Origin: Gammaproteobacteria bacterium
Lineage (GTDB): Bacteria > Pseudomonadota > Gammaproteobacteria > JABCZS01
NCBI GenBank assembly: GCA_044445605.1
Contig: JBIOEA010000002.1
Coordinates: 40,060-104,059 of the forward strand
Length of the DNA: 64,000 bases
Direction: 5' to 3'
The translations under genes and the position numbers were made by a program. The notes beneath the pieces were generated by a model that was given only the letters and a program-made list of their open reading frames with translations, searched no databases and had not been told where the DNA came from. Shown here in pieces: positions 4,012-62,700 of this stretch (position 1 is its first letter; each line of letters opens with the position of its first letter).

Positions 4012-5032
4012 ACCATGGCGGCAGTTTCATCGTGATCATCACGGCCAAGACAACAATCCAAACGAGTGTAACAGGAATGAATATCTTCCAGCCCAAACGC
4101 ATGAGTTGATCGTATCTAAACCGTGGGAATGTCGCGCGGAACCACAAATACAAGAATAAGAAAATACTTGTTTTGGCTAACAACCAGAAAATACCCGGTA
4201 TCCATGCCGTTGCCGTGGATAATACAGGAATACCGTCAAACGGTGAATGCCAACCACCCAAATAGAATATCGCGGCCAACACAGCCATCAAAATCATGTT
4301 CGCGTATTCTGCTAAGAAGAATACCGCAAACGCCATCCCCGAGTATTCAACATGGAACCCCGCCACAATTTCTGATTCACCTTCCGCTAAGTCAAAGGGC
4401 GCGCGGTTGGTTTCTGCCACCGCTGCAATCCAATGGACTACAAACAATGGGAACAAGGGAATAAAGAACCAATGCCATAATCCACCCGATTGCGCATTCA
4501 CAATCTCAGTGAGATTCAATGAGCCTGCGGCCATCAAAACACCGACCAAGGCAAACCCCATCGCAATTTCATATGAAATGATTTGTGCCGCAGAACGCAA
4601 TGCGCCTAATAACGCATATTTGGAATTGGATGCCCAACCGGCGATCACAATGCCATACACGCCCAGAGACGTCATGGCTAATATATAGAGTACGCCTGCG
4701 TTGACGTTCGCCAACACGGCATTGCCTTGAAACGGCACCACCGCCCAAGCAGCCAGTGACGAAGCCATCGTGATCATCGGGGCGATCAAGAATAAAAACC
4801 AGTTTGCTTTCGTAGGAAGAATGACTTCCTTCAGAAATAACTTGATACCGTCAGCAATCGGTTGCAATAATCCCAAAGGACCGACACGATTAGGACCGAC
4901 ACGATCTTGCATGTAACCAATGATCTTACGCTCCGCATACATTAAATATGCCACGCCCAAAATAACAGGCAGTACGATACATGCTGATTTCACCACGATC
5001 CAGAAAAGTGTTATCAATAATTCCATGCTCAT
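4004..5032 (-). CDS. nuoH: NADH-quinone oxidoreductase subunit H
   Basis: 342-aa membrane protein with ND1/NuoH signature; operon order. Confidence 0.9.
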
Positions 5033-7332
5033 TGCTCACCTCCTACTTGGATTTGGGCAAACCCAGCGCCTAATGTCGTTTGGTCTTTCAGCCCGTATGC
5101 AACAAAAACACTGTGCTCAGGTAAGCGTTTGTTCAATACCAACGGCAAATGCGCTTGGTTATCGCCTTGTGAAACACGCACTAACTCGCCTTCTTTCAAT
5201 CCCAATGAATCAAATAAGGATTGAGGCACATGAACACCTTGTACCCACTTCATGTCATTTGTCGCTTGCAAGGGCTCAGAACGACGCGTCAACATGTCGA
5301 CAGCGTAGATCGGCGTTTCGGCGAGACGTATATAGCCGCCGCTGTTCATGGATTTAGGCGAATGTGCAGGAGCGGTCCACTCGCCGCGCGAAGGACAAAT
5401 ATTCTTCGCCCCTACCACCTTATTTAAATTGTCCTGAACATCCTCTAGCGTATCATAGGCCATGTTTTCCAAACGATTCAAATCGGCCAATGCACGGAAA
5501 ATCTTCCATGCAGGACGTGCCTCATTTTTAGGCAAGACGGCCGCCTTGAAGGATTGAGAATCGCCTTGAACGTTCACAAACGATCCACTCATTTCAGAGA
5601 ACGGTGTGGCTGGCAATAATACATCAGCCCACTCGCGCATCGAAGCACTTGCATGACTTGTGATGCACACGACTGCTTCTGCAGAACGCAATGCTTTCTT
5701 CACAGGAGCACCGTAAGCGCAATCCAATGGCGGCTCAACATTCAATAGTACATAGGCTTTGCAAGGTTGTTCGAACATTTGCATCGCATTTTTGCCAACG
5801 GTCACGGATTGTGCACCCGGACCGCGATGTGGCACACATCCCGAAATCCAAGCACCCGCACTGTTCGCCCCTTCGGTCAATAAACCGAGATGCGCGTTGT
5901 ATTGTTTTGCCAATGCTTGTGCTGCATGGCGAATATGGGCCGCATGTGGGTGATGCAATGCTTGCGCACCCAACAAAATCGCCATCTTTTCGCCAGACTT
6001 CAATACGTCTGCGGCTTCACGGCTTGCTTGTGACAAAGCAGATAATAAATCACCGCGATCCGCCACGAATGATACGGCTCCCGGCAAGTTCATATCATGA
6101 TGCATCATGTCGACGACAATCACTTTCGCGCCATGATGTGCTGCTTTATAAGCACGATGCCACAATAAAGGTTGTTCTTTACGTAAATGCGAACCTATCA
6201 GCACGATCACATCCGCTTTTTCGAGCTCAGCAATCGTCATGCCTAAATTCGGATACAGCGGGAACGCATCTTCATCAGAAAAATCTTGGACTTTCAAACG
6301 GTGGTCAATGTTTGCCACACCCAAACCACGTAGGAAGGATTGCATCATGTGCATGTTTTCAGTCGTTTCACTCGGAGAGACTAAAGCACCCACTGCGTCA
6401 GCGCCGTCTTCATGTAATACTTTTTGTAATGCATTAACCGTGTGTTCCAATGCAGTTGCCCAGTCCGTCACGCGCCATTTGCCATCGATTTTAATCTCAG
6501 GCTTGGTGAGACGATCAGACGACGCAATACCATGAATGGCATAACGATCACGGTCCGACAACCAAACTTCGTTGATCGATTCGCATTCGCGTGGCACGGC
6601 ACGCATGACTTCGTTACGACGTTCGTGTAAAAACAGATGTGAACCCACGCAATCATGCGCGCTGATCATGGCTCGTTGGTTTAATTCCCAAGGACGTGCT
6701 TTGAATTGGAATGGCTTGTTCGTGAGCGCGCCCACAGGACAGATATCAATCACGTTACCGGATAATTCGGAATCCACGTTCTTTTTAACGAACGTTGTGA
6801 TCTTCGTGAACTCACCGCGGCCCACAGCACCTAATTCGCGGATGCCAGAGATTTCATCACCAAAGCGAACACAACGCGTGCAATGAATGCAACGGGTCAT
6901 GTAGGTTGCCACTAATGGGCCGAGATCAGGATCTTCAACGCTACGTTTGCCTTCGCTGTATTCAGAAATGCCTTCACCGTACCCCATCGATACGTCTTGC
7001 AATTCACACTCGCCGCCCTGATCGCACACCGGACAATCCAGCGGGTGGTTAATCAATAAAAATTCCATGACAATGCGCTGTGCTTCGAGTGCCATCGAAG
7101 AACGTGTGAAAACTTTCATGCCTTCTGTGATCGGCGTTGCGCATGCGGGCAGAGGCTTTGGCGCCTTTTCAACTTGCACCAAACACATCCGGCAGTTAGC
7201 CGCAATCGATAATTTTTTGTGATAGCAAAACCGTGGAATACGAATATTATTTTCGTCCGCGACTTCAATGATCATCTGGCCTTGTTCGGCTTCGACAGGC
7301 TTGCCGTTGATTTCAAATGTTACTTTGCTCAT
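5029..7332 (-). CDS. nuoG: NADH-quinone oxidoreductase subunit G (75-kDa Fe-S / molybdopterin-like subunit)
   Basis: N-terminal 2Fe-2S and 4Fe-4S cysteine clusters ([17 protein letters not shown]..., [20 protein letters not shown]); 767 aa; operon order. Confidence 0.9.
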
Positions 7333-7339
7333 CTATAAA

Positions 7340-7458
7340 CCCCTAGAGGGCGAAACATGTTTCGCCGCTACATACAAATCCCCCGCCTCGAAATACTCGG
7401 CCGCCCCCTTTTCAAAGGGGGCAAGAGGCTCCCCCGCCTCGGAATACTCGGCCGCCAT
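7340..7458. repeat. Composite REP-like intergenic repeat, copy 1 (between nuoG and nuoF). Modules: palindrome GGGCGAAACATGTTTCGCC, CCCCGCCTCGGAATACTCGGCCGCC (present twice) and CCCCTTTT..AAAGGGGG
   Basis: Direct comparison with copies at 38535-38632 and 53555-53630 (reverse orientation). Confidence 0.8.
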
Positions 7459-7466
7459 GACGCGTC

Positions 7467-8720
7467 CTACTTTTGCACCAGCGCATCAAATTCCGATCTA
7501 AAATGCTTGATAAAACTCAACACCGGCATCGCTGCCGCATCCGCCAATGCACAAATAGTGCGGCCCATCATTTTATTGGACACCGCTTGAAGCTTGTCCA
7601 AATCTTCTGATGTTCCTTCACCCTGCAGCACACGATGCAACATACGTGACAACCAACCCGTGCCTTCACGGCAAGGCGTGCATTGTCCGCAGGATTCTTC
7701 AAAATAAAATTCAGAGATGCGTGCCAACACTTTCACCATGTCTGTCGTATCGTCCATCACAATAACGGAGCCCGCGCCTAACATGCTGCCCGCTTTCGAC
7801 AAGGATTCATAATCCATGTTCACGTCCATCATGATGTGTGCCGGCAAAACAGGCACAGATGAACCACCTGGAATCACCGCCTTCAACGGACGATCAGTTA
7901 ACATGCCGCCTGCCATTTCTAGCAATGTTTTAAACGGTGTTCCCATCGGGACTTCATAATTACCAGGACGTTTCACGTGACCCGATACAGAAAATATCTT
8001 TGTACCACCGCTTTTTTCAGTGCCCATCTTGGCAAACCACTCTGCGCCCTTTTCCAAAATCACCGGCACAGATGCATAGCTTTCCGTGTTATTGATGATC
8101 GTAGGACGCCCATACAAACCAAAGTTTGCAGGAAAAGGTGGTTTGAAACGAGGTAAGCCCTTCTTCCCTTCGAGGGATTCGAGCAAGGCGGTTTCTTCTC
8201 CACAAATGTAAGCGCCAGCACCAATCGTATTGTGCAATTCGAAATCAACGCCACTACCCAAAATATTTTTGCCAATCAATCCAGCGTTGCGCGCTTCAGC
8301 CAGCGCTTTCTCGCATGCTTCAAATGGTTCAACATATTCACCACGAATATAGTTGTAGCCCAGCGTTGCGTTCAAGATGTACCCGGCGATGGCCATCCCT
8401 TCAATCAATTGATGTGGATTATAACGAAGAATATCCCGATCCTTAAATGTGCCTGGTTCGCCTTCGTCTGAATTGCACACCACAAATTTTTGCCCTTCGC
8501 GATGACGTGGCATAAAACTCCACTTCAATCCTGTCGGAAAGCCCGCGCCACCGCGGCCACGCAATCCAGACTTTTTGATTTCTTCAATCAATTCATCTGC
8601 AGAAGGTTTGTCTTTTAATATGCGACGCCAAACGGAATAGCCGCCGAGTGCTTCGTACGTTGCCAATGAAGCCGGATCTTGTTTATCCAGGGTGCGGAAA
8701 CAAACTTGGTTGATCAGCAT
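7467..8720 (-). CDS. nuoF: NADH-quinone oxidoreductase subunit F (NADH/FMN-binding, 4Fe-4S)
   Basis: 417 aa; [17 protein letters not shown] motif and Cys cluster ([12 protein letters not shown]); operon order. Confidence 0.9.
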
Positions 8721-37681: not shown

Positions 37682-37787
37682 CCCATTTTCCTTGGTCGCG
37701 AGGCGGGTTATTTTAATCGTACGGGCATTGTGTGCCCGTGTATACCGTAGGGGCAGATAATATTTGCCCGTATATTTGGAGTCAAAA

Positions 37788-38519
37788 ATGAGTCATAATC
37801 ATACCTATGAAATTGAAGCGCAAGTACGCGCAGACGCTGGGAGGGGTGCGAGCCGCCGCCTACGTCACGAAGGCAGAATCCCTGCAATCGTTTACGGTGC
37901 AGATGTTGCTGCCGTATCGTTAACCCTCGAGCACAAAGAAGTGATGAAGCACTTAGAACATGAAGGCTTCTACTCACACATTTTGGCGTTGAAAATCAAC
38001 GGCAAAAAAGAAGACGTCGTATTGAAAGATGTGCAACGCCATCCCTTCAAACCACGTGTATTACACATGGACTTCTTACGCGTTAAAGCGAACGAGCCCA
38101 TCTTGTTGCACGTACCATTACACTTCGTTGGCGAAACAGATTCACCTGCAGCTAAGAACGGCGGTGTATTTACCCACGTGATGATGAACGTTGAAGTGAA
38201 GTGCTTACCACGTGACTTGCCTGAGTTCATCGAAGTAAACGTATCTGGTTTGGAAATAGATAAAGCCATTCACTTGTCAGAATTGAAGCTGCCTAAAGGC
38301 GTGACGATTCCTGAACTTGATTTGGGTGAAGCACATGACCGCCCTGTCGTTTCTGCACATGAAGTCAGAGAAGCGAAGGAAGATCTGGAAGCCGAAGCAG
38401 CTGAAGAAGCATTGAAAGCCGCTGAACATGAAGCTTACCTGAAAGAACATCCTGAAGCAGCAGCGCCAGGAACAGCAGCACCAGCCGCTGAAGGTGAGAC
38501 GAAGGAAGAGGGTAAATAA
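37788..38519 (+). CDS. rplY: 50S ribosomal protein L25 / general stress protein Ctc (long form)
   Basis: N-terminal L25 fold (…EGRIPAIVYGADVAAVSLTLEHKEV…) plus acidic C-terminal extension; between prs and pth. The ORF track start 37764 is upstream of a more plausible ATG at 37788. Confidence 0.85.
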   Translation: MSHNHTYEIEAQVRADAGRGASRRLRHEGRIPAIVYGADVAAVSLTLEHKEVMKHLEHEGFYSHILALKINGKKEDVVLKDVQRHPFKPRVLHMDFLRVKANEPILLHVPLHFVGETDSPAAKNGGVFTHVMMNVEVKCLPRDLPEFIEVNVSGLEIDKAIHLSELKLPKGVTIPELDLGEAHDRPVVSAHEVREAKEDLEAEAAEEALKAAEHEAYLKEHPEAAAPGTAAPAAEGETKEEGK

Positions 38520-38534
38520 GGACACCAGCGATGC

Positions 38535-38632
38535 TTGTAGGGGCGAAACATTTTTCGCCCTTACAAAAATCCCCCGCCTCGGAATACTCGGCTGCCCCCT
38601 TTTCCCAAAGAGGGCCTAAGACATAGAAGGGC
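38535..38632. repeat. Composite REP-like intergenic repeat, copy 2 (between rplY and pth)
   Basis: TGTAGGGGCGAAACATTTTTCGCCCTTACA + AATCCCCCGCCTCGGAATACTCGGCTGCC + CCCCTTTTTCCCAAAGAGGG + CTAAGACATAGAAG, matching modules of copies 1 and 3. Confidence 0.8.
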
Positions 38633-40375: not shown

Positions 40376-40425
40376 CCTGTAATGAGATTATTCTTCACCT
40401 TCGCTATATAACCGCTCGGGGTCCC

Positions 40426-40552
40426 GGCATCTACGCGGGGAGGTCTTTATTTCACCATCGAACAAGCATCGGCTTGTCGTTCGCCCCAACAGCAGGGGCT
40501 CACTCGAGCAGATTTGTCGCGGTTCAATAAAGACCTCCCCGCGCAGATGCCA
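40426..40552. repeat. Structured element bounded by 26-bp inverted repeats (GGCATCTACGCGGGGAGGTCTTTATT / AATAAAGACCTCCCCGCGCAGATGCC, 1 mismatch) with nested internal hairpins. MITE-like or structured-RNA candidate
   Basis: Seen directly; ~75-nt interior itself contains the GAACAAGC/GCTTGTCGTTC and GCCCC/GGGGC hairpins. Confidence 0.6.
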
Positions 40553-40620
40553 CCCCTCACTCTTATGCGTGCGGCTTGAATAATGCTTATTTAATTTGTC
40601 ATAAAATATCCTAGCCTGAC

Positions 40621-40852
40621 TTTTAAATTCAAGTATTGTTCAAGCAAACGACAATGAAGCGAGTGTCGGTGCCAATGCGGGGTTGTTCTTATCGTGCCGG
40701 GACATATCTTGTCTGGCGAGCCTCCGATGCTGGAGCTTGCCCATGAGTTCCGCGTGAGCCCAACCACAATGCCAGCTACCTAATGGCATCGATAAGAATG
40801 ACACCGTGTTGGCAAACCAGACACGAGCGTTAAATAGAGTGCAGCGCAGAAC
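40621..40852. repeat. Left copy of a degenerate inverted repeat flanking the hydrolase island; split by a ~150-bp insertion relative to the right copy
   Basis: Reverse complement of 40801-40852 (GATTGTTCTGCGCTGCACTCTATTTAACGCTCG) and of 40621-40650 (GTTTGCTTGAACAATACTTGAATTTAAAAG) match contiguous sequence at 45911-45975. Confidence 0.5.
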
Positions 40853-40926
40853 AATCGCAAACCGCAGGAAAATTCAGATTGCCACGCTGCGTTGGAAAGC
40901 ACTGTCAAGCCTTACCTGGCCAAAAT

Positions 40927-42255
40927 TCATTTCTTCTCTTTCTTCTCACAAGGCTTAACTGCCGTTGTTCTATCAAAATGAATAATACTGTCAAACTGAT
41001 AAGGAAGTTGCGTATAGAAATAGTGACTATCCCTCTCAGTGCCGGGTGAATAAATCACACCAATGGCACGTTGCAGTCTTGGAATTTTCAATAAATGTTC
41101 GAGATTTTTATTTCCACGAAGTTCCAGTAAAAAGTTGTCATAAGGAATGTCATGAAATAATTTTTCATAACTCCCTGCTAAACCAGGTTTAATGTTTCGC
41201 ACCATACCAGGCATGTCCCAAGAAGTGGCGGCAGTCACGGTACCATCATAAGTGGAAAAACCAATCGAATAAACCTCTTCATCATGTCTTTCTCGAACAA
41301 GTTGTCCAATATTGAATTCGCCGCGGAACCCCATTTCTGTGGCTCTTGCATCGCCCACATGAGAATTGTGTGCCCAAATAATTATTTTGGCGGGTTTATT
41401 TAAACGTTTTTCAAGATGGTCTAAAATAGACTCCACGGTTTCAGCCATGTGTTTATCGCGATTATTCCACGATAAAACATGCCCATCAAACATAGAACGA
41501 TAATAATTTTCCGCATTTTTTACTATCTTTGCGTTTTGCAAGGCAAAGAAATATTCTTCTTCTGCTAACAGCCCATCTTTTTTTATATACTTTAAAGCAT
41601 CCTTTTGCAACTCCATGATTTCCATCACTGCTTCTTTAATACAGGGTTTCTTCAACCCTTCCGACGTCAGGAAACCGTATTCTTGAGCATCATCCAACAT
41701 ATGATCAAAACAGCCATACCGTTTTATTGCGCGCTCTGCTGCAGCTGGATCTGCTTTCACCAGATAATCAATCACAGCTTTCATCGAAGCATAAAAACTA
41801 TATAAATCTAATCCATAAAATCCAACTTTATTTTTCTGATCACATTTATCGTTGAAACAACGCATCCATTTCAACAAGTCTGGCATTGTTTTATTGCACC
41901 ACATCCATGTTGGAAATCGTTTAAACGCAGATAATGCTTCCTCAGCATTATTAACATCGCCAATACCTTGCACATACCGATGGAGTGAATAGACATCCGG
42001 CCAATCGCCCTCAATCGCAATAGCCATAAACCCCTTTTCTTCAATAAGTCTTTTCGATATATCAATGCGAGCTTGATAAAACTCTTCCGTCCCATGTGTC
42101 GCTTCACCCATCAATACAATGCGTGAGTCTCCAATTTTTTCTATCAAAGAGGAATATTTGTCTGCATTTTCTAATAGTGGTTCAGATTCTCCAGCAATAA
42201 CGCTGACAAGATGGTCATAGGCTGATTTCAACTCTTTATTCATTTTAAAATGCAC
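40927..42255 (-). CDS. Erythromycin-esterase-family (Ere/Bcr136-like) protein
   Basis: 442 aa; N-terminal …VLMGEATHGTEEF… motif of the erythromycin esterase family (PF05139-like); no signal peptide. Confidence 0.65.
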   Translation of the reverse strand: MHFKMNKELKSAYDHLVSVIAGESEPLLENADKYSSLIEKIGDSRIVLMGEATHGTEEFYQARIDISKRLIEEKGFMAIAIEGDWPDVYSLHRYVQGIGDVNNAEEALSAFKRFPTWMWCNKTMPDLLKWMRCFNDKCDQKNKVGFYGLDLYSFYASMKAVIDYLVKADPAAAERAIKRYGCFDHMLDDAQEYGFLTSEGLKKPCIKEAVMEIMELQKDALKYIKKDGLLAEEEYFFALQNAKIVKNAENYYRSMFDGHVLSWNNRDKHMAETVESILDHLEKRLNKPAKIIIWAHNSHVGDARATEMGFRGEFNIGQLVRERHDEEVYSIGFSTYDGTVTAATSWDMPGMVRNIKPGLAGSYEKLFHDIPYDNFLLELRGNKNLEHLLKIPRLQRAIGVIYSPGTERDSHYFYTQLPYQFDSIIHFDRTTAVKPCEKKEKK

Positions 42256-42335
42256 CCTGGTAGATTAACTGATTTCCTATGCTAACATTATAGAGTTAAT
42301 TTTGAAAAACAGTTAATCGACAAGGGGATTTAGAT

Positions 42336-43439
42336 ATGAGAGATTATACGCTGACTGCCATTGGCACGATAATCCTTTCATTGATGGGTATCTCCAGTTC
42401 TTTGGCTTGTACTGATTTTCGGCTCACGGCTCAAGACGGAACCGTTCTGATCACACGCACGATGGAACATTCTGATTTGCATTCTAACCTTCGAAGCTCC
42501 ACTCGCGGCAGAATTTTTCAAACGACGGCGCCAGACGGCAAACCTGGATTAACGTGGAAAGCAACATATGGTTATGTATTTATGGATGGTTTGAATGTAG
42601 ACGCATCCCTCGATGGAATGAATGAAGCAGGCCTCTCATTTGAGGCACTCTACCTCCCTGACTATGCGCAATATCAAGAAGTTCCTTCAGGTCATGACGA
42701 TGAAGCACTTCCATACTTATACATAGGTGATTGGATCCTCAGCAACTTTAAAACGGTTGATGAGGTAAAAGAAGCACTCAATCATATATTCCTTTATGGG
42801 AATAAAATACCCGGCATGGGCGATATGATTTACCCCCTGCATTATGCAGTATATGATGCTTCTGGGAAAGGTCTCGTGATTGAATATGTTAATGGCAAGT
42901 TAAATCTTCATGACAACGCTATTGGCGTACTGACCAATTCTCCGCCTTACGATTGGCATCTTACCAATCTGAAAAATTATATTCACCTTCGCCCCGTTAA
43001 TCCTACACCGGTGCAAGCAAGCGGTATTACCTTTGCTGCAGCAGGCGTTGGTTATGGCATGGTCGGTTTACCTGGAGATATTAGCCCTCCTTCGCGTTTT
43101 GTTAAAATGGCGGTGCTGAAAGATGTAGCATTACCCGCAAAAAATTCTGATGAGGTACTCACGCTTGCCCAACATATCATTAATAACGTGGATATCCCGT
43201 TAGGGCTGGTTCGCATCCCCGAAAACAATACATTTACCACGGAGACAACAGAATGGACTGTCTTCAAAGATTTAACGCACAAAGTGCTTTATTACCGTAG
43301 CTATGAGGATTTCACAATACATGCAGTGAATCTTTCTCAGGTTGATTTTTCAGAAAAAGCACAGCGCTTGAAAATGCCCATGGCGAGTAAAGCACATATT
43401 GAAGACGTGACAAATCAATTTTTGAAATCTATTCCGTGA
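42336..43439 (+). CDS. Choloylglycine-hydrolase-family Ntn hydrolase (penicillin V acylase / bile-salt hydrolase-like), secreted
   Basis: Signal peptide ending …SSLA|CTDFRL, placing Cys at the mature N-terminus as in the CBAH family; 367 aa. Confidence 0.7.
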   Translation: MRDYTLTAIGTIILSLMGISSSLACTDFRLTAQDGTVLITRTMEHSDLHSNLRSSTRGRIFQTTAPDGKPGLTWKATYGYVFMDGLNVDASLDGMNEAGLSFEALYLPDYAQYQEVPSGHDDEALPYLYIGDWILSNFKTVDEVKEALNHIFLYGNKIPGMGDMIYPLHYAVYDASGKGLVIEYVNGKLNLHDNAIGVLTNSPPYDWHLTNLKNYIHLRPVNPTPVQASGITFAAAGVGYGMVGLPGDISPPSRFVKMAVLKDVALPAKNSDEVLTLAQHIINNVDIPLGLVRIPENNTFTTETTEWTVFKDLTHKVLYYRSYEDFTIHAVNLSQVDFSEKAQRLKMPMASKAHIEDVTNQFLKSIP

Positions 43440-43462: not shown

Positions 43463-44665
43463 TTATGAGCCACAAGTTGACTTTGCTTTCTTTCCTGAAA
43501 AACGATCGGAAATCCATGCTAAAAAGTCTTTTTGAGCATACGCAGAAAGTCCAATGTGATCAACACCTTTATAAAGGTGATATTCAATAGTGGCGCCTTG
43601 TTTACAAACTTTTTCCACATAAGCCGTTGTTGTCTCGGGAAATATGGCCAAATCCGCATCACCCTGATACACAGCAAGTGGAACTTTTGCGGGAATATTG
43701 CCGAGTGAATTTTCGGCAATACGCTTGTCCCACTTATCTTGATTTTTTCTATCCACGCGAATAGCAGGCCCGACATACTCTTCAAAATAACCCAGCGAAT
43801 CACTCATATGGTGACTGCATTGTGATTTGATTGATTCAGTCAAAAACTTAATGCCATTATCTGTCAACATATCATTCAATTTTAACTCGGGGAACACGAG
43901 CGTCATGGCATACCATGCCATGACCATTTCAGTGGCAGTAACAGGCCGAAGTTTTTTACCTTCCGATGTTATCTTATGCATAATCCTGATTTGCTCATCA
44001 GCATTAACAGGCGCTAAAGACACAGCACCAACAAGATTTGCATGACCGCTTAAGTAATCTGCCAATTGCGCTGCCCAGACAGACGCTTGCCCACCTTGTG
44101 ACCAACCGATAGCAACCACTTCGTTTCCAGCGTGGATTTCTGGCATCTGTTGCACAGCAATCGCTGCATCCATCATATTCCGTGCCTCAGTCGAACCAAT
44201 CAAATATTGATGTATGCCAGGCGAACCTAAGCCGTTGTAGTCTGTTGCCACCACCACATATCCTGCAGCAATCATCTCGGATAAACCTGGAATGCCATAA
44301 TCAAAATCCTCATCGCTATTGGGATGATAGTAAAACACTGCATCACGTGCAGGGTGTTTTGCCAGTGAAGGGGCGCAATGATTTGATATACCAGACGTTC
44401 CGTGCCCCCAGGTGACAATGTGCAACATTTTTTTTGAATCAGACGTTGCTGGCGCAATGACAATACCTGAAACAGGTACCACTTCGTCGTTAATGGTGGT
44501 AGACCAATATGAAATTCTCCACGCTTTGGCATTTGAAACAGAGGTATTGATCTCTTTTGTCGATATGACCTTGCCATGCTGTGGCAAAGAAGCATTATCT
44601 TGCGCCATTGCTGAAATGCAGACGCACGTTAAAAACAGTGAACGAGCAAAAAATGAATGTGTCAT
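43463..44665 (-). CDS. Secretory lipase (LIP family alpha/beta hydrolase) with signal peptide
   Basis: Signal peptide …CISAMA|QD; GWSQGG nucleophile-elbow motif; 400 aa; overall LIP (PF03583-like) architecture. Confidence 0.65.
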   Translation of the reverse strand: MTHSFFARSLFLTCVCISAMAQDNASLPQHGKVISTKEINTSVSNAKAWRISYWSTTINDEVVPVSGIVIAPATSDSKKMLHIVTWGHGTSGISNHCAPSLAKHPARDAVFYYHPNSDEDFDYGIPGLSEMIAAGYVVVATDYNGLGSPGIHQYLIGSTEARNMMDAAIAVQQMPEIHAGNEVVAIGWSQGGQASVWAAQLADYLSGHANLVGAVSLAPVNADEQIRIMHKITSEGKKLRPVTATEMVMAWYAMTLVFPELKLNDMLTDNGIKFLTESIKSQCSHHMSDSLGYFEEYVGPAIRVDRKNQDKWDKRIAENSLGNIPAKVPLAVYQGDADLAIFPETTTAYVEKVCKQGATIEYHLYKGVDHIGLSAYAQKDFLAWISDRFSGKKAKSTCGS

Positions 44666-44746
44666 TTATTTTCTTCCTTAACACAAGGTTTAACCGTTGT
44701 TGCTCTATCGAAATGAATAATACTGTCAAACCAACTCTTTATTCAT
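44666..44746 (-). pseudogene. Remnant of a second ere-like gene: ~65 bp of the 3' end fused to ~15 bp of the 5' end, consistent with an internal ~1.2-kb deletion
   Basis: 44669-44730 matches 40933-40995 (3' end of the ere-like gene) and 44731-44746 matches 42226-42255 (5' end including the start codon). Junction TCAAAC^CAACTC lies in a short direct repeat (TCAAAC/TTCAAC). Confidence 0.7.
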
Positions 44747-44822
44747 TTTAAAATGCACCCTGGTAGATTAACTGATTTCCTATGCTAACATTATAGAGTC
44801 AATTTTGAAAAACAGTTAATCG
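44747..44822. repeat. Near-identical duplicate of the ere/hydrolase intergenic (promoter) region 42256-42331
   Basis: …TGGTAGATTAACTGATTTCCTATGCTAACATTATAGAGT(T/C)AATTTTGAAAAACAGTTAATCG… present at both sites. Confidence 0.85.
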
Positions 44823-44911
44823 CCAACAATGCTGATGAGGCACTCAAGCTCGCTCAACACATCATTAATAACAATGTCCTATATAACGCATCGGGCTTGG
44901 CTATACATTGA
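44823..44911 (+). pseudogene. Internal fragment of a diverged choloylglycine-hydrolase paralog (corresponds to residues ~270-300 of the intact gene), 5' ~800 bp missing
   Basis: Translates to NADEALKLAQHIINNNVLYNASGLAIH* versus intact KNSDEVLTLAQHIINNVDIPLGLV…; joined directly to the duplicated promoter region. Confidence 0.6.
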
Positions 44912-45886: not shown

Positions 45887-45910
45887 AAATGCAACTTTTT
45901 GGTACGCATT

Positions 45911-45975
45911 GGTGATTGTTCTGCGCTGCACGCTATTTAACGTTCGCGTTTGCTTGAACAATGCTGATTTAAATG
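45911..45975. repeat. Right (compact) copy of the degenerate inverted repeat flanking the hydrolase island
   Basis: GATTGTTCTGCGCTGCACGCTATTTAACGTTCGCGTTTGCTTGAACAATGCTGATTTAAATGAT matches reverse complement of segments in 40621-40852. Confidence 0.5.
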
Positions 45976-46150
45976 ATATAAATTAGCCCGTTGCATCAAA
46001 TAGAATTGAATGATGAATTTGGAAGAAGCATTAAAGAAAGCGATATCAAATTCATTCGCTTCGCTAGCAGGACGCCGACGATAAGCGCCCAAGAACAGTC
46101 GATTCCTTCGGTATGTGAATTCAGGTTATGAAGCGAAGGTGAGAAAAATC

Positions 46151-46216
46151 CCCATGGCGAGTAAAGCACCTATTGAAGACGTGACAAATCAATTTTTGAA
46201 ATCTACCCTTCCCTAG
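46151..46216 (+). pseudogene. 3'-terminal fragment (~20 codons) of a choloylglycine hydrolase gene copy
   Basis: CCCATGGCGAGTAAAGCACCTATTGAAGACGTGACAAATCAATTTTTGAAATCTA… is ~95% identical to 43380-43433, the 3' end of the intact gene. Confidence 0.7.
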
Positions 46217-46566
46217 TGTCCAAATGGATGTCTTTCTATGCCTTCTGCCAACAAAATGCTGGCTAATGCATTGAGGCTTACACCTTCAAGTTTGGCCCGT
46301 CTAGCAAGTGCTGCATGCAGGCTTTTAGGCACACGCATACGCCATTGGCCACTATATTGCTCAGGGCTAGGTAATTCGTCATTAAATTCCTTAGCAGTGA
46401 GCAACCACGATTTCAAGGCATCCTCGGCAGCAGCCAAGGCTTCCTCAATCGTTTCCCCATCTGCCATGCAACCAGGCAAGTCTGGAAATTCTACTAGATA
46501 ACCATCGCCCTCTGACTTACTGAGGTGTCTAATGGTGACTGGGTATTTTAATTCAATCATTGCCAT
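46213..46566 (-). CDS. hicB: HicB-family antitoxin
   Basis: …YPVTIRHLSKSEGDGYLVEFPDLPGCMADGETIEEALAAAEDAL… RNase H-like HicB fold plus C-terminal RHH-like region; overlaps the upstream hicA by 14 bp. Confidence 0.8.
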   Translation of the reverse strand: MAMIELKYPVTIRHLSKSEGDGYLVEFPDLPGCMADGETIEEALAAAEDALKSWLLTAKEFNDELPSPEQYSGQWRMRVPKSLHAALARRAKLEGVSLNALASILLAEGIERHPFGH

Positions 46567-46798
46567 CCTCCATCATCTCTTCAATCAACATTACGAATTG
46601 CTTTATATAAATAGGTTTAATCGGTTTTCTTGCTGGTACTGTCAATTTCTTTCCTGCAGGCGTACGAAACGTCACATGGCTTGTGCCAGGCTGCCGATAA
46701 TCAATGCCAAAGCTATCGGCGATACTTTTTAAGTCTTCAATGCGCCAATCCGTTGGATTTTGTTTTAGCTTTAAAAGCCGTTTTATTGTTTTACTCAT
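46553..46798 (-). CDS. hicA: HicA-family mRNA interferase toxin
   Basis: 81-aa YcfA/HicA-like protein (…GTSHVTFRTPAGKKLTVPARKPIKPIYIKQFVMLIEEM). Confidence 0.75.
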   Translation of the reverse strand: MSKTIKRLLKLKQNPTDWRIEDLKSIADSFGIDYRQPGTSHVTFRTPAGKKLTVPARKPIKPIYIKQFVMLIEEMMEDGND

Positions 46799-51394: not shown

Positions 51395-51826
51395 TCAGTC
51401 CACCCAATTTTCTACTTTAAGCCCGGGAAATCGTTTAAACTCGCGCACGTTATTTGTAATCAGTGTGCACTTTAAACTCAAGGCATGAGAGCCGATCATT
51501 AAATCTTCTGATCCAATCACCTGCCCTTTTGCTTCAAGATATGCGCGTATCTCTCCGTATACAGCCGCAGCCTCATAACCAAATGGCTCAATGCATAATC
51601 GAGAAATAAATGAATTTATTATTGTCTCATTGATATTGGGTTCGCCCGTGTTTTTGCTTTTTTTATGGTGCCAATGATTTCTTGCAACCCAATACCGTAA
51701 CTCTGCCAGGCTCACGCTAGAAATCATACAAGCATCTGCAGGAATGCTTTGGAAATGCTTTAATACTTTTTCCGGCCTGTGCTTGATAATATAGCTACAA
51801 ATATTCGTATCTAACATATACTGCAT
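51395..51826 (-). CDS. vapC: VapC toxin (PIN-domain ribonuclease)
   Basis: MQYMLDTNICSYIIK… N-terminal PIN acidic residues; 143 aa; immediately downstream of vapB. Confidence 0.85.
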   Translation of the reverse strand: MQYMLDTNICSYIIKHRPEKVLKHFQSIPADACMISSVSLAELRYWVARNHWHHKKSKNTGEPNINETIINSFISRLCIEPFGYEAAAVYGEIRAYLEAKGQVIGSEDLMIGSHALSLKCTLITNNVREFKRFPGLKVENWVD

Positions 51827-51828
51827 TT

Positions 51829-52059
51829 TTAGAAATCTTCCCTTTTTTGTGGTAATTGTTGGTGACGGTCCAATGAAAAATCATCGGTAAGCCGTGGCGT
51901 TTTATGAAAAAAATCGTCCCAGGAAGCAGGCTTTGGCCTGATGAGCAACCCATCGGCTACCCTTTCAATCCATACCTCTTGCGTATCAAAGCGATACTCT
52001 TTTGGAATACGCACGGCTTGCGTGCTCGGCCCATTGGTGAATACTGTGCTTGCTTTCAT
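51829..52059 (-). CDS. vapB: VapB antitoxin (AbrB/SpoVT/MazE-type)
   Basis: MKASTVFTNGPSTQAVRIPKEYRFDTQEVWIERVADGLLIRPKP…; start at the internal ATG (52059) rather than the longer track ORF. Confidence 0.8.
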   Translation of the reverse strand: MKASTVFTNGPSTQAVRIPKEYRFDTQEVWIERVADGLLIRPKPASWDDFFHKTPRLTDDFSLDRHQQLPQKREDF

Positions 52060-52172
52060 AAGCCCTCCTGCATATATATTAATTATATATACTATACAAG
52101 CCCAGGTCAAGTCATTAGTACTCACGCTCTTATAGAAAAGAGGCATTTACGCAACAAAGGCAAAAAACCACT

Positions 52173-53543: not shown

Positions 53544-53554
53544 GGATACCAGCC

Positions 53555-53630
53555 TTCTATGTCTTAGGCCCCCTTTGGTAAAAGGGGGCAGCCTGTAGGG
53601 ACGAAACATGTTTCGCCCCTACAATAGAGG
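53555..53630. repeat. Composite REP-like intergenic repeat, copy 3 (reverse orientation; downstream of rho)
   Basis: Reverse complement TGTAGGGGCGAAACATGTTTCGTCCCTACA + GCCCCCTTTTACCAAAGGGGGC + CTAAGACATAGAAG matches modules of copies 1 and 2. Confidence 0.8.
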
Positions 53631-59703: not shown

Positions 59704-59791
59704 GTCGCCCTCTTTGCCTTGCTTTAACGACCCCACCCATGTTAAGCTAACCTCCTTAAATCAAGCATTTTCTGATGAAGGGGTATTGAAT

Positions 59792-62700
59792 ATGGGTATT
59801 AATGCACAACAGCTCAAAACTAACTTTATTACTCTAGATTACAAAAATGAGATCCTGAAATACCCTCAACTCTGGATAGAGCTCTTAGAAATCTCTTCAC
59901 GGAAGGCATATGAGTACATAGACTTATTTAGCGATAATGAATCATTACAGCTTATACAAAATTCACAAACACAAGCAACCCTTCGCGCAACACTCTTCAC
60001 AAAATATCTAAACTATATTGTCGACTTTTCCGACCCATTTGATTCAAGTACAATCATCACCGAAGCACACATGAAAAAAATGGTAGAAAGATGTTTGAAA
60101 GACGAAGTCTGGGATAACGATAGAGTAGAAATCCATTATCTAAACCATCACACCTCGTTTTTTTATGAAGAAACGGGTCAATATATTATGCAAAAATCTA
60201 CCCAAGGTTCTAACCAAGTCGAACTTAATCTCGGCCACACAAACATACATAAACATCTGAAATATAATAGTCAAGAAATTCGCAAAAGCGACACCAAAAC
60301 AGATTTTTTCTCCGCCTATAACATTGAGCATGAAAGAGCCGAAGCTATGGCCAGTAAATGCATAGCAATATTAGATAAATCAAATGAAGGGTTTTTGGAT
60401 GCTGAATTTCAACGATTCATAAATGGTGACATCCGCCGTGCCATGACCCAGTTAGCAAAACTTGGACAATATGATCTCTTGATGGCGATTTTCAAGAAGC
60501 TATCCCCTGCCGTTGCAGTAGATGAACTTACCCGTGGGGGCACTGACAGCGTCTTTGCCATTCTCGTTAATGCACTGCCAGAAACGCGTGTCATTCTTGG
60601 CAACCTTATAAATCATGCCATAGGCATAGAAAATATGACAATGAAGGAATTTAATCATAAGATTCTGCCGGTAACGCTCAATACTATTAAAGAACGTTCC
60701 GAATCGTTATATCAAAAACTAACAGACTCTTCATCCTCAAAACCAACATCCACACAAAAAGATGAAAATGAGTTGGAATTAAATAATATAAAAGTCTATG
60801 AGAATGGCAGCACGTTCTGGGATGGCATGGATTTAGATGAATTCTGTAAAGTGCCTTACCTTATTCCAGAGTTCATCAAGCACGATCTGATCAAAAATCC
60901 CGAAAAACTATGCTCGATTGCAAAAAAGAATAAATATCTAGCATGCAATTATATCAGCGCACTCAGCGACGAGCAGGCAAAAATACTCGCCAACAATGCA
61001 TCCGACAACGTGTTGATTGATCTTTTTAATCACACAGTAAAACATACAGTAATGATTCATCAAAAAGTTAATGACATGTACAAGTTGCTGAAACATGCGA
61101 ACAATTCGGTTTGTGAGGCAGTGTTCGGCGAGCTAACTCATCATGACTGGACAAGAATTTTAAAAAACAAAGCATGTCCACTTGTAAACAAATTAGTAGA
61201 GACGGTAACCAATGATAATGCATCTCGCCTTCTTGGTAAGCTAGACTTTAATTTATTAAATTTATTGTCAGGCGATTCCTTTTTCAGTGGTGAGGAAATA
61301 CATCTTTATCTAAAAGCACCTTCTTTTTATGGTATCAATTACGACAATTTGAACGATAAGTCGTCTATTAACTTTTTTATTCATCATATACTCACGGCAG
61401 CAGAAAGGGATAATAAACTTACCCCTGGCAAGCAAGATGTCGTATGCACCCTCATCACTCAATTGCTTGCAGGCGACGCCTCAATCTTTAACCTATTTGT
61501 TAATAAGGAGGCAAACTCATTAGGACTTATATTTTCTGCTTTCAAATTTCATCAGCTCATGACTAATCAGCTTCCTGAAAGAACATTTCAGGCTTTGCAA
61601 TTAGACACATGGTTAGCGCTGCCCAAAAAAGCTATTGGCAACTCTTATAATACAGCCATTCAATTACTCAATTTTGTTTCAACTGAAAATGCTGCATCGC
61701 TTTTGGGTGGGCTTCAATTTGATTTGCTTAACGCCCTGACGGAACAAGATTTATATGATGAAGCACAAAATCTTTTTGTAAAACTACCCAGTCAAAACAT
61801 TCCACCGAAGCTAATCAAATGGGTTGAAGACAAAATCAAAGCATCCCCTAAAGCAACGATTGAAAGCCTCGGCATTGAAAAAATACTCATGGATGCCATT
61901 AGCGCTTCAAAGGCAGCAAAAATAGATGCTAGGAAGTTTTTAGCTGAAGCTCAGGAAAACCCCGCTGCTGCCTGCAAATTCTTACAGTTACAAAGCGATA
62001 GAATCATTGAAGCACTCGTCGGTAGCATCCATTCCATCCAGGATAAGTATTTTTTCGAACGCATTATCCTTGCTTTTGACGAACACATGCCGATTAAATT
62101 AATGATGAAAATTGATTCAAACATTATTTTTTCGTTTTCACAATTTCACGATTCAGATACTACGACCCCTGCGATAGAAAGTCTCTGCATGAATTATTTA
62201 AAAAATGATCGGTTCGACATGATCTGTGCATTATTGAAACATGCCTCTCAAGTTGATCTATGGCATCTTCATTTTACTGTACTTTCTCAAGCTTCTTTTA
62301 TCAAGAAATCAATCGAAATGAATTGGGAGCGTAACATCATCGATGCGTTGCGTATGCATACTGATAAGGATACAAATCAAATATTGCTTACCTATATTGA
62401 GAATGTTATTGAGCACTTTTCTGCTGATTATCCCTATAGCCCAAAGAGTTTCGAAGTCTTTCTGCAAAGTTTGGATCCAGAATGCGTTCCCTTATTAAAA
62501 CCGATTAACAGTTTTAATGACCTCATGTCAAAGAATAAACTGCTACATGCTAAAGTGCTTTATCAAATGAATCCAACGTATTTTAACGATAATGCTGAGC
62601 GCCCAGCCATCATTAAACTCAAGGCACTGTACCCCGATCTGAATAGCGATGCTAAACCCATTCAACAGTCGACCAGTGAAATGGATATTCTTAGGGCAGA

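Follow-up and report, generated by a model that had tools for sequence, protein, structure and literature searches.

Three intergenic repeat sites in a Legionellales-like gammaproteobacterium are probably mosaics of a GTAG-tagged REP hairpin and a second short repeat

Introduction

What kind of sequence separates nuoF from nuoG in this genome, and do the similar sequences that follow the stop codons of rplY and rho belong to the same element? We address these questions in a 64,000-nucleotide stretch of gammaproteobacterial DNA (hereafter the window). The original prediction, made from its sequence, described one modular, REP/BIME-like element shared by the three intergenic sites, and suggested a REP/BIME- or Correia-like role as a terminator, mRNA stabiliser or protein-binding site. 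Its NuoF and one of its ABC transporters match proteins of a metagenome-assembled genome labelled 'Gammaproteobacteria bacterium' at 100% identity, which led us to reject an origin in Coxiella burnetii. The nearest named homologues of NuoF are those of Berkiella and Kangiella (about 72% identity) and those of the ABC transporter belong to Legionella, Tatlockia and Coxiellaceae (54-58%), from which we infer that the source is an uncultured Legionellales-like lineage.

Several kinds of short bacterial repeat bear on the question. E. coli REPs protect the upstream cistron from 3' exonucleases and alter the translation of genes that have a stop codon near the REP, and binding by gyrase, IHF and nucleoid proteins has been proposed for E. 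coli BIMEs. Correia elements, which are Neisseria MITEs, have 26-bp terminal inverted repeats (TIRs), a TA duplication and an IHF site. GTAG-tagged REPs and REPINs are mobilised by RAYT transposases (Di Nocera et al, 2013, PMC3733652; Bertels and Rainey, 2011, PMC3116915), and QMITE2 of Coxiella burnetii is a repeat of 150-190 bp with 17-31-bp TIRs and 7-11-nt direct repeats that serves as a target of IS1111 (Wachter et al, 2018, PMC5896051).

Results

Three gene junctions share four sequence modules

A direct sequence check located the described modules at all three predicted sites, 7340-7458, 38535-38632 and 53555-53630 (copies 1, 2 and 3; exact module positions in Table 1), and NCBIfam matches to the flanking genes confirmed the predicted junctions. 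NuoF (7467-8720) and NuoG (5029-7332) are both encoded on the minus strand, and copy 1 therefore lies between the nuoF stop and the nuoG start. Copy 2 lies between the end of rplY (38519; encoding L25/Ctc, with its true start at the ATG at 37789) and the start of pth (38640), and copy 3 between the end of rho (53543) and the start of a gene for an MsbA-like ABC transporter (53641). The high expression that the original prediction ascribed to the genes before these copies was an assumption.

The sharing of modules across the three sites held up, with shuffled sequence yielding essentially none of them. The 30-mer palindrome of module A, with up to three mismatches allowed, gave two matches in the window, and the 25-mer of module B gave three, each against 0.00 expected; the D tail gave two exact matches against 0.15, an expectation that allows up to two mismatches. 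An unaided repeat search of the window recovered the same families (D7, D8, I2 and I3).

The composition of the element needed some correction. Modules A, B and C were present as claimed, and the tail D was found only in copies 2 and 3. Copy 1 does contain two copies of B, as predicted, which are really part of a tandem of the whole B+C unit with a 51-nt period, 1.5 units long (nhmmer E-values of 1.6e-15 and 9.9e-6); on the nuo mRNA (minus strand) this array reads B'-C'-B'. The GAAGGG motif within tail D of copy 2 is likely the Shine-Dalgarno sequence of pth. In copy 3 the BC part is a 41-nt segment that the repeat search found to be 95% complementary to 38590-38630; it lacks the B core, and A occupies the place of B.

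We also identified related hairpins beyond the three predicted sites: a decayed fourth module A within prmC, hairpins in the prs-rplY spacer, and a further hairpin at a gene end. Altogether the 64-kb window holds three intergenic copies of A, one intragenic copy and three variant hairpins, and the relatives described below hold sister variants.

Table 1. Positions of the repeat modules and related hairpins in the window
Feature	Position	Strand	Description
Copy 1, module A (GTAG-type REP hairpin)	7343-7372		Six mismatches to the consensus palindrome; left GTAG decayed to CTAG
Copy 1, 1.5 tandem BC units	7373-7456	+	AAATC, B 7381-7405, C hairpin 7403-7422, AAGAGGCTC, second B 7432-7456
Short GTAG hairpin	17447-17465	+	GTAGGGGCGAaaaTCGCCC; inside the last codons of a GNAT acetyltransferase ORF
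Decayed fourth module A, in prmC	30584-30608	-	GTAGGGGAGAAACATCTTTCGACC on the minus strand; 84% match to the A family (repeat search)
Two REP-like hairpins, prs-rplY spacer	37719-37769	+	GTACGGGCAttgtgTGCCCGT and GTAGGGGCAGATaatATTTGCCC
Copy 2, module A (REP hairpin)	38536-38565		Tagged GTAG...(T)TAC at both ends; two mismatches; 16 nt past the rplY stop
Copy 2, BC unit	38566-38630	+	AAAATC, B 38572-38596, C hairpin 38594-38615, D 38616-38630; nhmmer E 5.2e-15
Copy 3, inverted part of a BC unit	53553-53593	-	D' 53553-53567 and C' 53568-53589, plus AGCC; nhmmer E 0.0026
Copy 3, module A (GTAG REP hairpin)	53594-53623		Tagged at both ends; one mismatch to the consensus

Module A belongs to the GTAG-tagged REP hairpins

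Module A (TGTAGGGGCGAAACATGTTTCGCCCCTACA) is a palindrome of 28-30 bp with a 9-bp stem and a 2-nt loop. GTAG occurs in all three window copies, and copies 2 and 3 are tagged at both ends (GTAG...CTAC), which is atypical and looks like a collapsed REPIN; the window copies themselves are single hairpins, where a REPIN has two REPs. GTAG hairpins across the clade have different stems (GGGCGAAAC/GTTTCGCCC, GGGCGCCTC/GAGGCGCCC, GGGCGCGTC/GACGCGCCC, GGGCGAAT/ATTCGCCC and GGGCGCAT/ATGCGCCC). In an alignment of eight A-type copies, 94% of stem cells are paired, compared with 43-58% when the partner strand is slid, a percentage that is inflated because the aligned hairpins had been pre-selected for forming a stem. 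Three of the nine pairs have changed on both sides, and none of 500 shuffles reached the covariation score. Module A is thus a genuine GTAG-tagged REP hairpin of the superfamily described by Di Nocera et al (PMC3733652).

The palindrome is widespread. Scanning one genome per species with the pattern GTAGNGNCGAAACATNTTTCGCC, we found it in at least 107 genome stretches from many phyla, where about one would be expected by chance as estimated from pattern length and database size; the stretches listed come from Bacteroidota, Chloroflexota, Planctomycetota, Desulfobacterota, Pasteurellaceae and other groups. Among the 119 matches listed, 32 are doubly tagged like those of the window, and 21 are REPIN-like, with a second, inverted REP ending in CCCCTAC within 130 nt in head-to-head arrangement. 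A literature search with the palindrome as a text string found no paper.

Clustering of all open reading frames within 2.5 kb of the listed A palindromes revealed at seven loci a RAYT-like family of about 190 residues, whose ORFs lie a median of 193 nt from the palindrome; it tied with one other cluster for the most loci. These proteins carry an HUH motif (MPNHIH) and a tyrosine motif (NYYEH), and three representatives match the NCBIfam model NF047646, 'REP-associated tyrosine transposase', with E-values of 6e-16 to 2e-14 and scores of 54-59 bits, below the curated cut-off of 80. By tblastn, the family occurs in about 8 of the at least 107 listed A-palindrome loci, near or containing the palindrome. 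No RAYT or other transposase was detected among the scanned ORFs of the window, nor by tblastn in the window plus about 370 kb of DNA from relatives. By analogy, and given both the association in other phyla and what is established for REPs and RAYTs, module A probably owes its spread to an HUH transposase of RAYT type that acts on it as a hairpin of single-stranded DNA and whose gene would lie elsewhere in the genome. Copying of A as a single-stranded hairpin by such an HUH/Y1 enzyme would leave no target-site duplication.

Modules B and C form a single unit with a nearly invariant core

Modules B and C and the start of D together make up one unit of about 55 nt, in which a 21-mer that hardly varies is followed by a GC hairpin and then an AAGA tail; the unit reads (AACAAC or AAATC) CCCCGCCTCG(G/A)AATACTCGGC (T/C)GCCCCCTT..AAGGGGGC nAAGA. 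The D tail of copies 2 and 3 is a window-specific continuation of this AAGA-type tail. Every genuine copy of B is directly followed by the C hairpin and an AAGA-type tail. We rejected B as a stand-alone hairpin, as it is not self-complementary.

A metagenome scan for B returned 18 stretches, 13 of them from Ga0206795 and two from Ga0182016. Five GC-rich matches (L115, L119, L121, L122 and L126) have no C hairpin and are probably due to chance. The Ga0206795 sample also yielded a relative whose NuoF is 95% identical to that of the window. With an nhmmer profile we counted 18 full-length BC copies at E-values of 1.6e-14 or lower, distributed over the window, Ga0206795, Ga0182016 and L136, a relative whose Pth is 81% identical to the window's. 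Every BC copy that we checked lies between genes, and several are followed by three tandem copies of a hairpin unit of 40-54 nt. In L128 two inverted BC copies lie 5.9 kb apart; we considered them as ends of a composite transposon and rejected this on the layout of the intervening ORFs, which are long, lie in mixed orientation and give no hint of an IS.

B and D are absent from the at least 107 listed cross-phylum loci of the A palindrome. Searches of plasmid, E. coli and viral collections (72,556 plasmid records and 5,426 E. coli genomes, by blastn for these two) gave no match to the composites, to A or to B. To judge from the sequences searched, the BC unit is specific to this uncultured gammaproteobacterial clade.

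The two repeats keep company more often than spacing alone would give: by eye, a GTAG REP lies no more than about 31 nt away from five of the roughly 16 BC units. The BC unit is also oriented, with about 9 of 10-11 copies between co-directional genes reading C' then B' on the sense strand, according to crude ORF-based gene calls; the exception is the rplY-pth site. In the orthologous rplY-pth spacers of the window and L136, B is identical at 21 of 21 positions, while four-fold degenerate sites of pth are 47% identical, so that the neutral expectation for this identity is 0.47^21, or about 1e-7. This fits purifying selection or homogenisation better than passive junk. Different assemblies share the same G/A polymorphism at position 11 of B. 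All these signs of constraint are equally compatible with recent spread, gene conversion among copies, or strand-specific single-strand transposition.

A and BC come and go independently at orthologous junctions

We compared the three junctions with those of relatives: L110/L111 from metagenome Ga0206795 (NuoF 95% identical to the window's), L108/L134 from GCA_964383495.1 (NuoF 92%), L112 from GCA_021773275.1 (NuoF 83%), L132/L137 from Ga0480561 (Pth 90%, ABC transporter 85%) and L139 (ABC transporter 88%), together with L136.

The gap between nuoF and nuoG is 134 nt in the window, 8 nt in L108 and a 4-nt overlap in L112. In L110/L111 it is 36 nt and contains a decayed C'-B' remnant (CCTCCCTTTGAAAAAGGGAGG TGCCCGAAGGGCGGAGGG ATTTGTAT) followed by the ATG, with no module A; the nuoF stop codon of L110 falls in the loop of the remnant's hairpin, and the C stem carries a compensatory change, with CCTCCC/GGGAGG in place of CCCCCC/GGGGGG. 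In the window module A lies between the BC unit and the nuoG start codon, and at this junction it is absent from L110, L108 and L112 alike. Since the window also has ATTTGTAT, followed there by A and then the ATG, A arrived beside a BC unit that was already in place. Copy 1 is a lineage-specific insertion inside the nuo operon.

At the rplY-pth junction, L136 has B and C in the same orientation as the window, again with no A. In L132 and L134 the unit is inverted and other palindromes (of CGTC type in L132) replace the B core, within a preserved frame of ...GGGGGC-AG-[x]-GGCGGGGGTTGT; some version of BC is thus found in this spacer in all four genomes compared. The rho-ABC gap is empty in L136 (63 nt, no repeat), holds a different GTAG REP in L134, and carries REPIN-type doublets in L139 and L137, the latter with a partial duplication of the 3' end of rho as well. 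A and BC occur separately at these orthologous sites, and the three sites therefore do not carry one unitary element: the predicted modules are present, and the single shared element that they were thought to compose is not.

Turnover also extends into a coding sequence. The decayed A in prmC encodes CRGETSFDR in frame, within a block that amounts to a 13-residue insertion in the window and nine residues in L132, and is missing from the PrmC of L134 and L136. In L132 the same place is taken by another GTAG REP variant, which encodes VGAPHEAP.

The spacers form hairpins and lack terminator and promoter signals

RNA folding, which the original prediction had proposed as a check, produced the expected A and C hairpins in the spacers. 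The whole spacer of copy 3 is clearly more stable than its shuffles (z about -4.3), and the sense-strand folds of copies 1 and 2 (z of -1.1 and -2.3) are less stable relative to shuffles than copy 3. None of the three elements has a T-run after a hairpin on the sense strand or any other terminator-like site there, which argues against the suggested terminator role, and none contains a promoter consensus. In a search of the whole window against Rfam, only a tRNA passed the gathering threshold; at permissive thresholds the best E-value was 0.13 or worse, far under gathering scores.

Discussion

We consider it probable that each of the three sites is a mosaic built from two distinct small non-coding repeats, the GTAG REP hairpin A and the BC unit, which gather in short spacers past stop codons. 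This reading builds on the repetition of the modules, their insertion polymorphism among relatives, the covariation of the hairpins, the independence of the modules from one another, and the absence of terminator and promoter signals. The REP/BIME-like character proposed at the outset is borne out by the GTAG hairpin with its compensatory stems, its mosaic arrangement with another repeat, and the RAYT-like genes near the palindrome elsewhere; the further copies anticipated beyond the window also exist, with A in at least 107 stretches and the 18 full-length BC copies spread over at least four assemblies.

Such mosaics could arise in a few steps. BC would disperse to intergenic spacers and expand locally by tandem duplication; REP hairpins would tend to land beside or inside BC, giving composites; and both would persist in the short spacers that follow stop codons. 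Host effects, if any, would then most likely be incidental to the presence in the transcript of stable hairpins that lack a U-tail and could shield the upstream cistron from 3' exonucleases. At the nuo site, copy 1 replaces a tight nuoF-nuoG junction with a 134-nt structured spacer and could uncouple the translation of the two genes. The originally suggested parts in mRNA stabilisation and protein binding are speculative, and so is the reasonable idea that copy 1 modulates the stoichiometry of nuoG versus nuoF.

The strongest competing explanation, which we regard as possible though doubtful, is that selection maintains BC, alone or together with A, as a cis-acting element controlling how strongly neighbouring cistrons (nuoF/nuoG and rplY/pth) are expressed relative to each other. 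It would do so either as a motif between cistrons, in RNA or DNA, to which a conserved protein binds, or by determining processing or stability. Several of the observations above point this way: B hardly varies among 18 copies drawn from at least four assemblies, with the position-11 G/A variant recurring across assemblies; it is fully conserved at rplY-pth despite the 47% four-fold identity; a version of BC occupies that spacer in each of the four genomes; the orientation bias of about 9:1-2 between co-directional genes hints at strand-specific constraint; and the C stem of L110 shows a compensatory change. Against these stand the flipped orientation in L132 and L134 at that very spacer, where unrelated palindromes have replaced the B core, as well as the two relatives whose nuoF-nuoG junction has no element, the absence of B from copy 3 and the lack of an Rfam match. 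Moreover, recent spread or gene conversion would explain the identity of the copies equally well, and the orientation bias could reflect strand-specific transposition relative to replication.

A version of this idea to which we likewise give a minor share of credence is that BC is an undescribed conserved cis-element whose 21-mer (CCCCGCCTCGGAATACTCGGC, with the form CTCGG-N4-CTCGG) next to the GC hairpin is a putative recognition site for a dedicated protein, kept by purifying selection and attractive to REPs. On the same tentative footing, that protein might be a regulator that binds RNA or DNA, or else a recombinase or transposase of some uncharacterised kind.

Much less credible is the proposal that the composite is an IS-derived MITE moved in trans by a DDE transposase, Correia-like or related to C. 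burnetii QMITE2. The source of the window gives it some appeal, as a Legionellales-like gammaproteobacterium whose best named matches lie in Legionella, Tatlockia, Coxiellaceae and Berkiella, and QMITE2 too contains a GTAG REP, is found mostly in 3' UTRs and intergenic regions, and in its small versions is essentially a REP (PMC5896051). Inspection of the copies, their folds and their junctions, however, revealed no terminal inverted repeats, flanking direct repeats or target-site duplications, a result that also speaks against the Correia- or MITE-like reading in the original prediction. The modules separate at orthologous sites, and the units span about 55-119 nt and the composites 71-114 nt, whereas QMITE2 has 150-190 bp. 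Among the subset of window ORFs scanned we saw no transposase, whether IS110/IS1111 or other, and blastn gave no match in the 72,556 plasmid records. The C. burnetii REP is assigned to family GTAG-3, and the peptide reported for a REP dimer in CBU_1229 (SPYEAQRNTGTESSLPPVFHGTSYRR) is unlike any translation of module A.

Equally improbable is a role as DNA sites for chromosome-organising proteins (gyrase, IHF or other nucleoid proteins), in which the elements would be retained for their part in supercoiling or domain structure and not for effects on RNA: B does hold the direct repeat CTCGG-N4-CTCGG, the A and C palindromes work in either orientation and copies occur in both orientations relative to transcription, but no IHF consensus match was seen by inspection, the density is low (three composites in 64 kb), and the elements are missing at orthologous sites of close relatives.

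The interpretation as mosaics of A and BC adds an uncultured Legionellales-like lineage to those in which REP/BIME-type mosaic repeats have been catalogued. It also provides a clean natural example of REP turnover, with junctions that are empty, hold a remnant or carry other repeats while the neighbouring proteins are 56-99% identical; one insertion splits the normally tight nuoF-nuoG junction, and another lies in frame in prmC. For annotation, the sites should be labelled as repeat elements, not as terminators or sRNAs. The almost invariant 21-mer of BC is the sole part that could repay experimental work.

Comparison with known repeat systems

Module A shares with GTAG REPs and REPINs a GC-rich hairpin of 28-30 bp, terminal GTAG and complementary stem variation. 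It lies after stop codons, with one copy within a gene, and elsewhere the palindrome forms head-to-head doublets and adjoins RAYT-like genes. It differs in that the window copies are doubly tagged single hairpins and that no RAYT was seen in the 64-kb window.

QMITE2 is likewise a small repeat with a GTAG REP. It resides in a Legionellales-type genome, for the most part between genes or in 3' UTRs, and at times overlaps the end of a gene, as the remnant in L110 overlaps the nuoF stop. We rejected identity with QMITE2, whose size, TIRs and direct repeats were not seen here by inspection; the organism is not C. burnetii, and the window REP appears to belong to another GTAG family. Correia elements are also short intergenic repeats that can be co-transcribed with flanking genes, but their TIRs, TA duplication and IHF site were not seen on inspection of the window copies. 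The decayed A in prmC, an in-frame insertion that leaves the gene intact, recalls Rickettsia palindromic elements and intragenic REPs; unlike the Rickettsia elements, the insert is much shorter (about 10 residues) and of the GTAG REP type, not the RPE type.

In organisation the sites parallel E. coli BIMEs and the intergenic mosaic elements of Neisseria, in which a REP is joined to further short conserved motifs in more than one arrangement, just as A and BC combine in three arrangements here, and which likewise occupy spacers within and after operons and expand locally in tandem. Unlike E. coli BIMEs, each composite has one REP instead of alternating Y and Z REPs, and blastn found no similarity to the composites in 5,426 E. 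coli genomes. The three sites represent a familiar type of intergenic repeat in bacteria and no new system, although the BC partner motif is a new sequence.

Repeats within genes and spacers

The PrmC methyltransferase gene of the window contains a decayed GTAG REP (the tagged hairpin, module A) that is inserted in frame and encodes the peptide CRGETSFDR. Among relatives of the window organism, prmC of L132 carries a different REP variant at the matching alignment position, and prmC of L134 and L136 lacks a REP insert. Three further hairpins were found in the window: GTACGGGCAttgtgTGCCCGT and GTAGGGGCAGATaatATTTGCCC, both REP-like, and GTAGGGGCGAaaaTCGCCC, a short GTAG hairpin. Next to the first two, the real start of rplY is the ATG at 37789, the mechanical ORF start at 37764 being too far upstream.

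In two relatives, the spacer between rho and the ABC transporter gene holds REPIN-type (head-to-head) doublets with extra hairpins nested within the REP loops, and L137 also shows a partly duplicated rho 3' end. This pattern suggests a hot-spot of repeat activity at the rho-ABC junction. The relative Ga0206795 carries short tandem arrays headed by BC units (the clade-specific repeat), with 3-10 copies of hairpin-containing, 36-54-nt repeat units.

Other repeats and gene pairs in the window

A 550-nt non-coding stretch adjoining an erythromycin-esterase-like gene contains a 31-nt inverted repeat pair (90% complementary), and a longer inverted pair encloses ~5 kb. Several hydrolase genes (Ere-like, choloylglycine hydrolase-like, secretory lipase-like and arginase-family) have short, near-identical direct repeats (84-98%) over their starts and upstream sequences, which suggests recent segmental duplication or common regulatory regions. 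Direct repeats of ~1.1 kb (76-81% identical, 3.09 kb apart) fit a tandem arrangement of large, paralogous genes of efflux type, namely a 1052-residue ORF (59714-62872) and the next gene. The window also encodes three toxin-antitoxin-like pairs.

Coordinates of repeats and associated genes (window unless a locus is named)
Feature	Coordinates	Context
Decayed GTAG REP	30584-30608, minus	prmC 30090-30917
GTACGGGCAttgtgTGCCCGT, GTAGGGGCAGATaatATTTGCCC	37719-37769	prs-rplY spacer
GTAGGGGCGAaaaTCGCCC	17447-17465	final codons, GNAT acetyltransferase ORF 16673-17497
REPIN-type doublets	L137 9730-10000; L139 1221-1326	rho-ABC spacer
Tandem arrays	L120 7734-7854, 8958-9334; L127 13916-14059; L124 2184-2348	Ga0206795
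Non-coding stretch	40376-40926	
31-nt inverted pair	40426-40456 / 40521-40551	non-coding stretch
Longer inverted pair	40815-40861 / 45909-45955	
Hydrolase-start direct repeats	42229-42323 vs 44732-44826; 40927-40996 vs 44662-44731; 43371-43431 vs 46145-46205	
~1.1-kb direct repeats	59799-60906 vs 62890-64000	
Toxin-antitoxin-like pair	21778-22416	HigB-like + HTH antitoxin
Toxin-antitoxin-like pair	46213-46798	HicB-like + small ORF
Toxin-antitoxin-like pair	51395-52146	PIN + MazE-like antitoxin, directly upstream of rho
RAYT-like ORFs with palindrome	L074 609-1214; L105 1719-2312; L099 4094-4420; L002 6654-7178	other phyla

The REP palindrome in RAYT-like genes

In other phyla, ORFs for Y1 transposases resembling RAYTs (REP-associated tyrosine transposases) contain the same palindrome, GTAGGGGCGAAACATnTTTCGCCCCTAC, or a variant; it lies in frame just after the HUH motif and encodes the peptide VGAKH(L/F)SPL. 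These transposase-like genes appear to contain a copy of their cognate REP.
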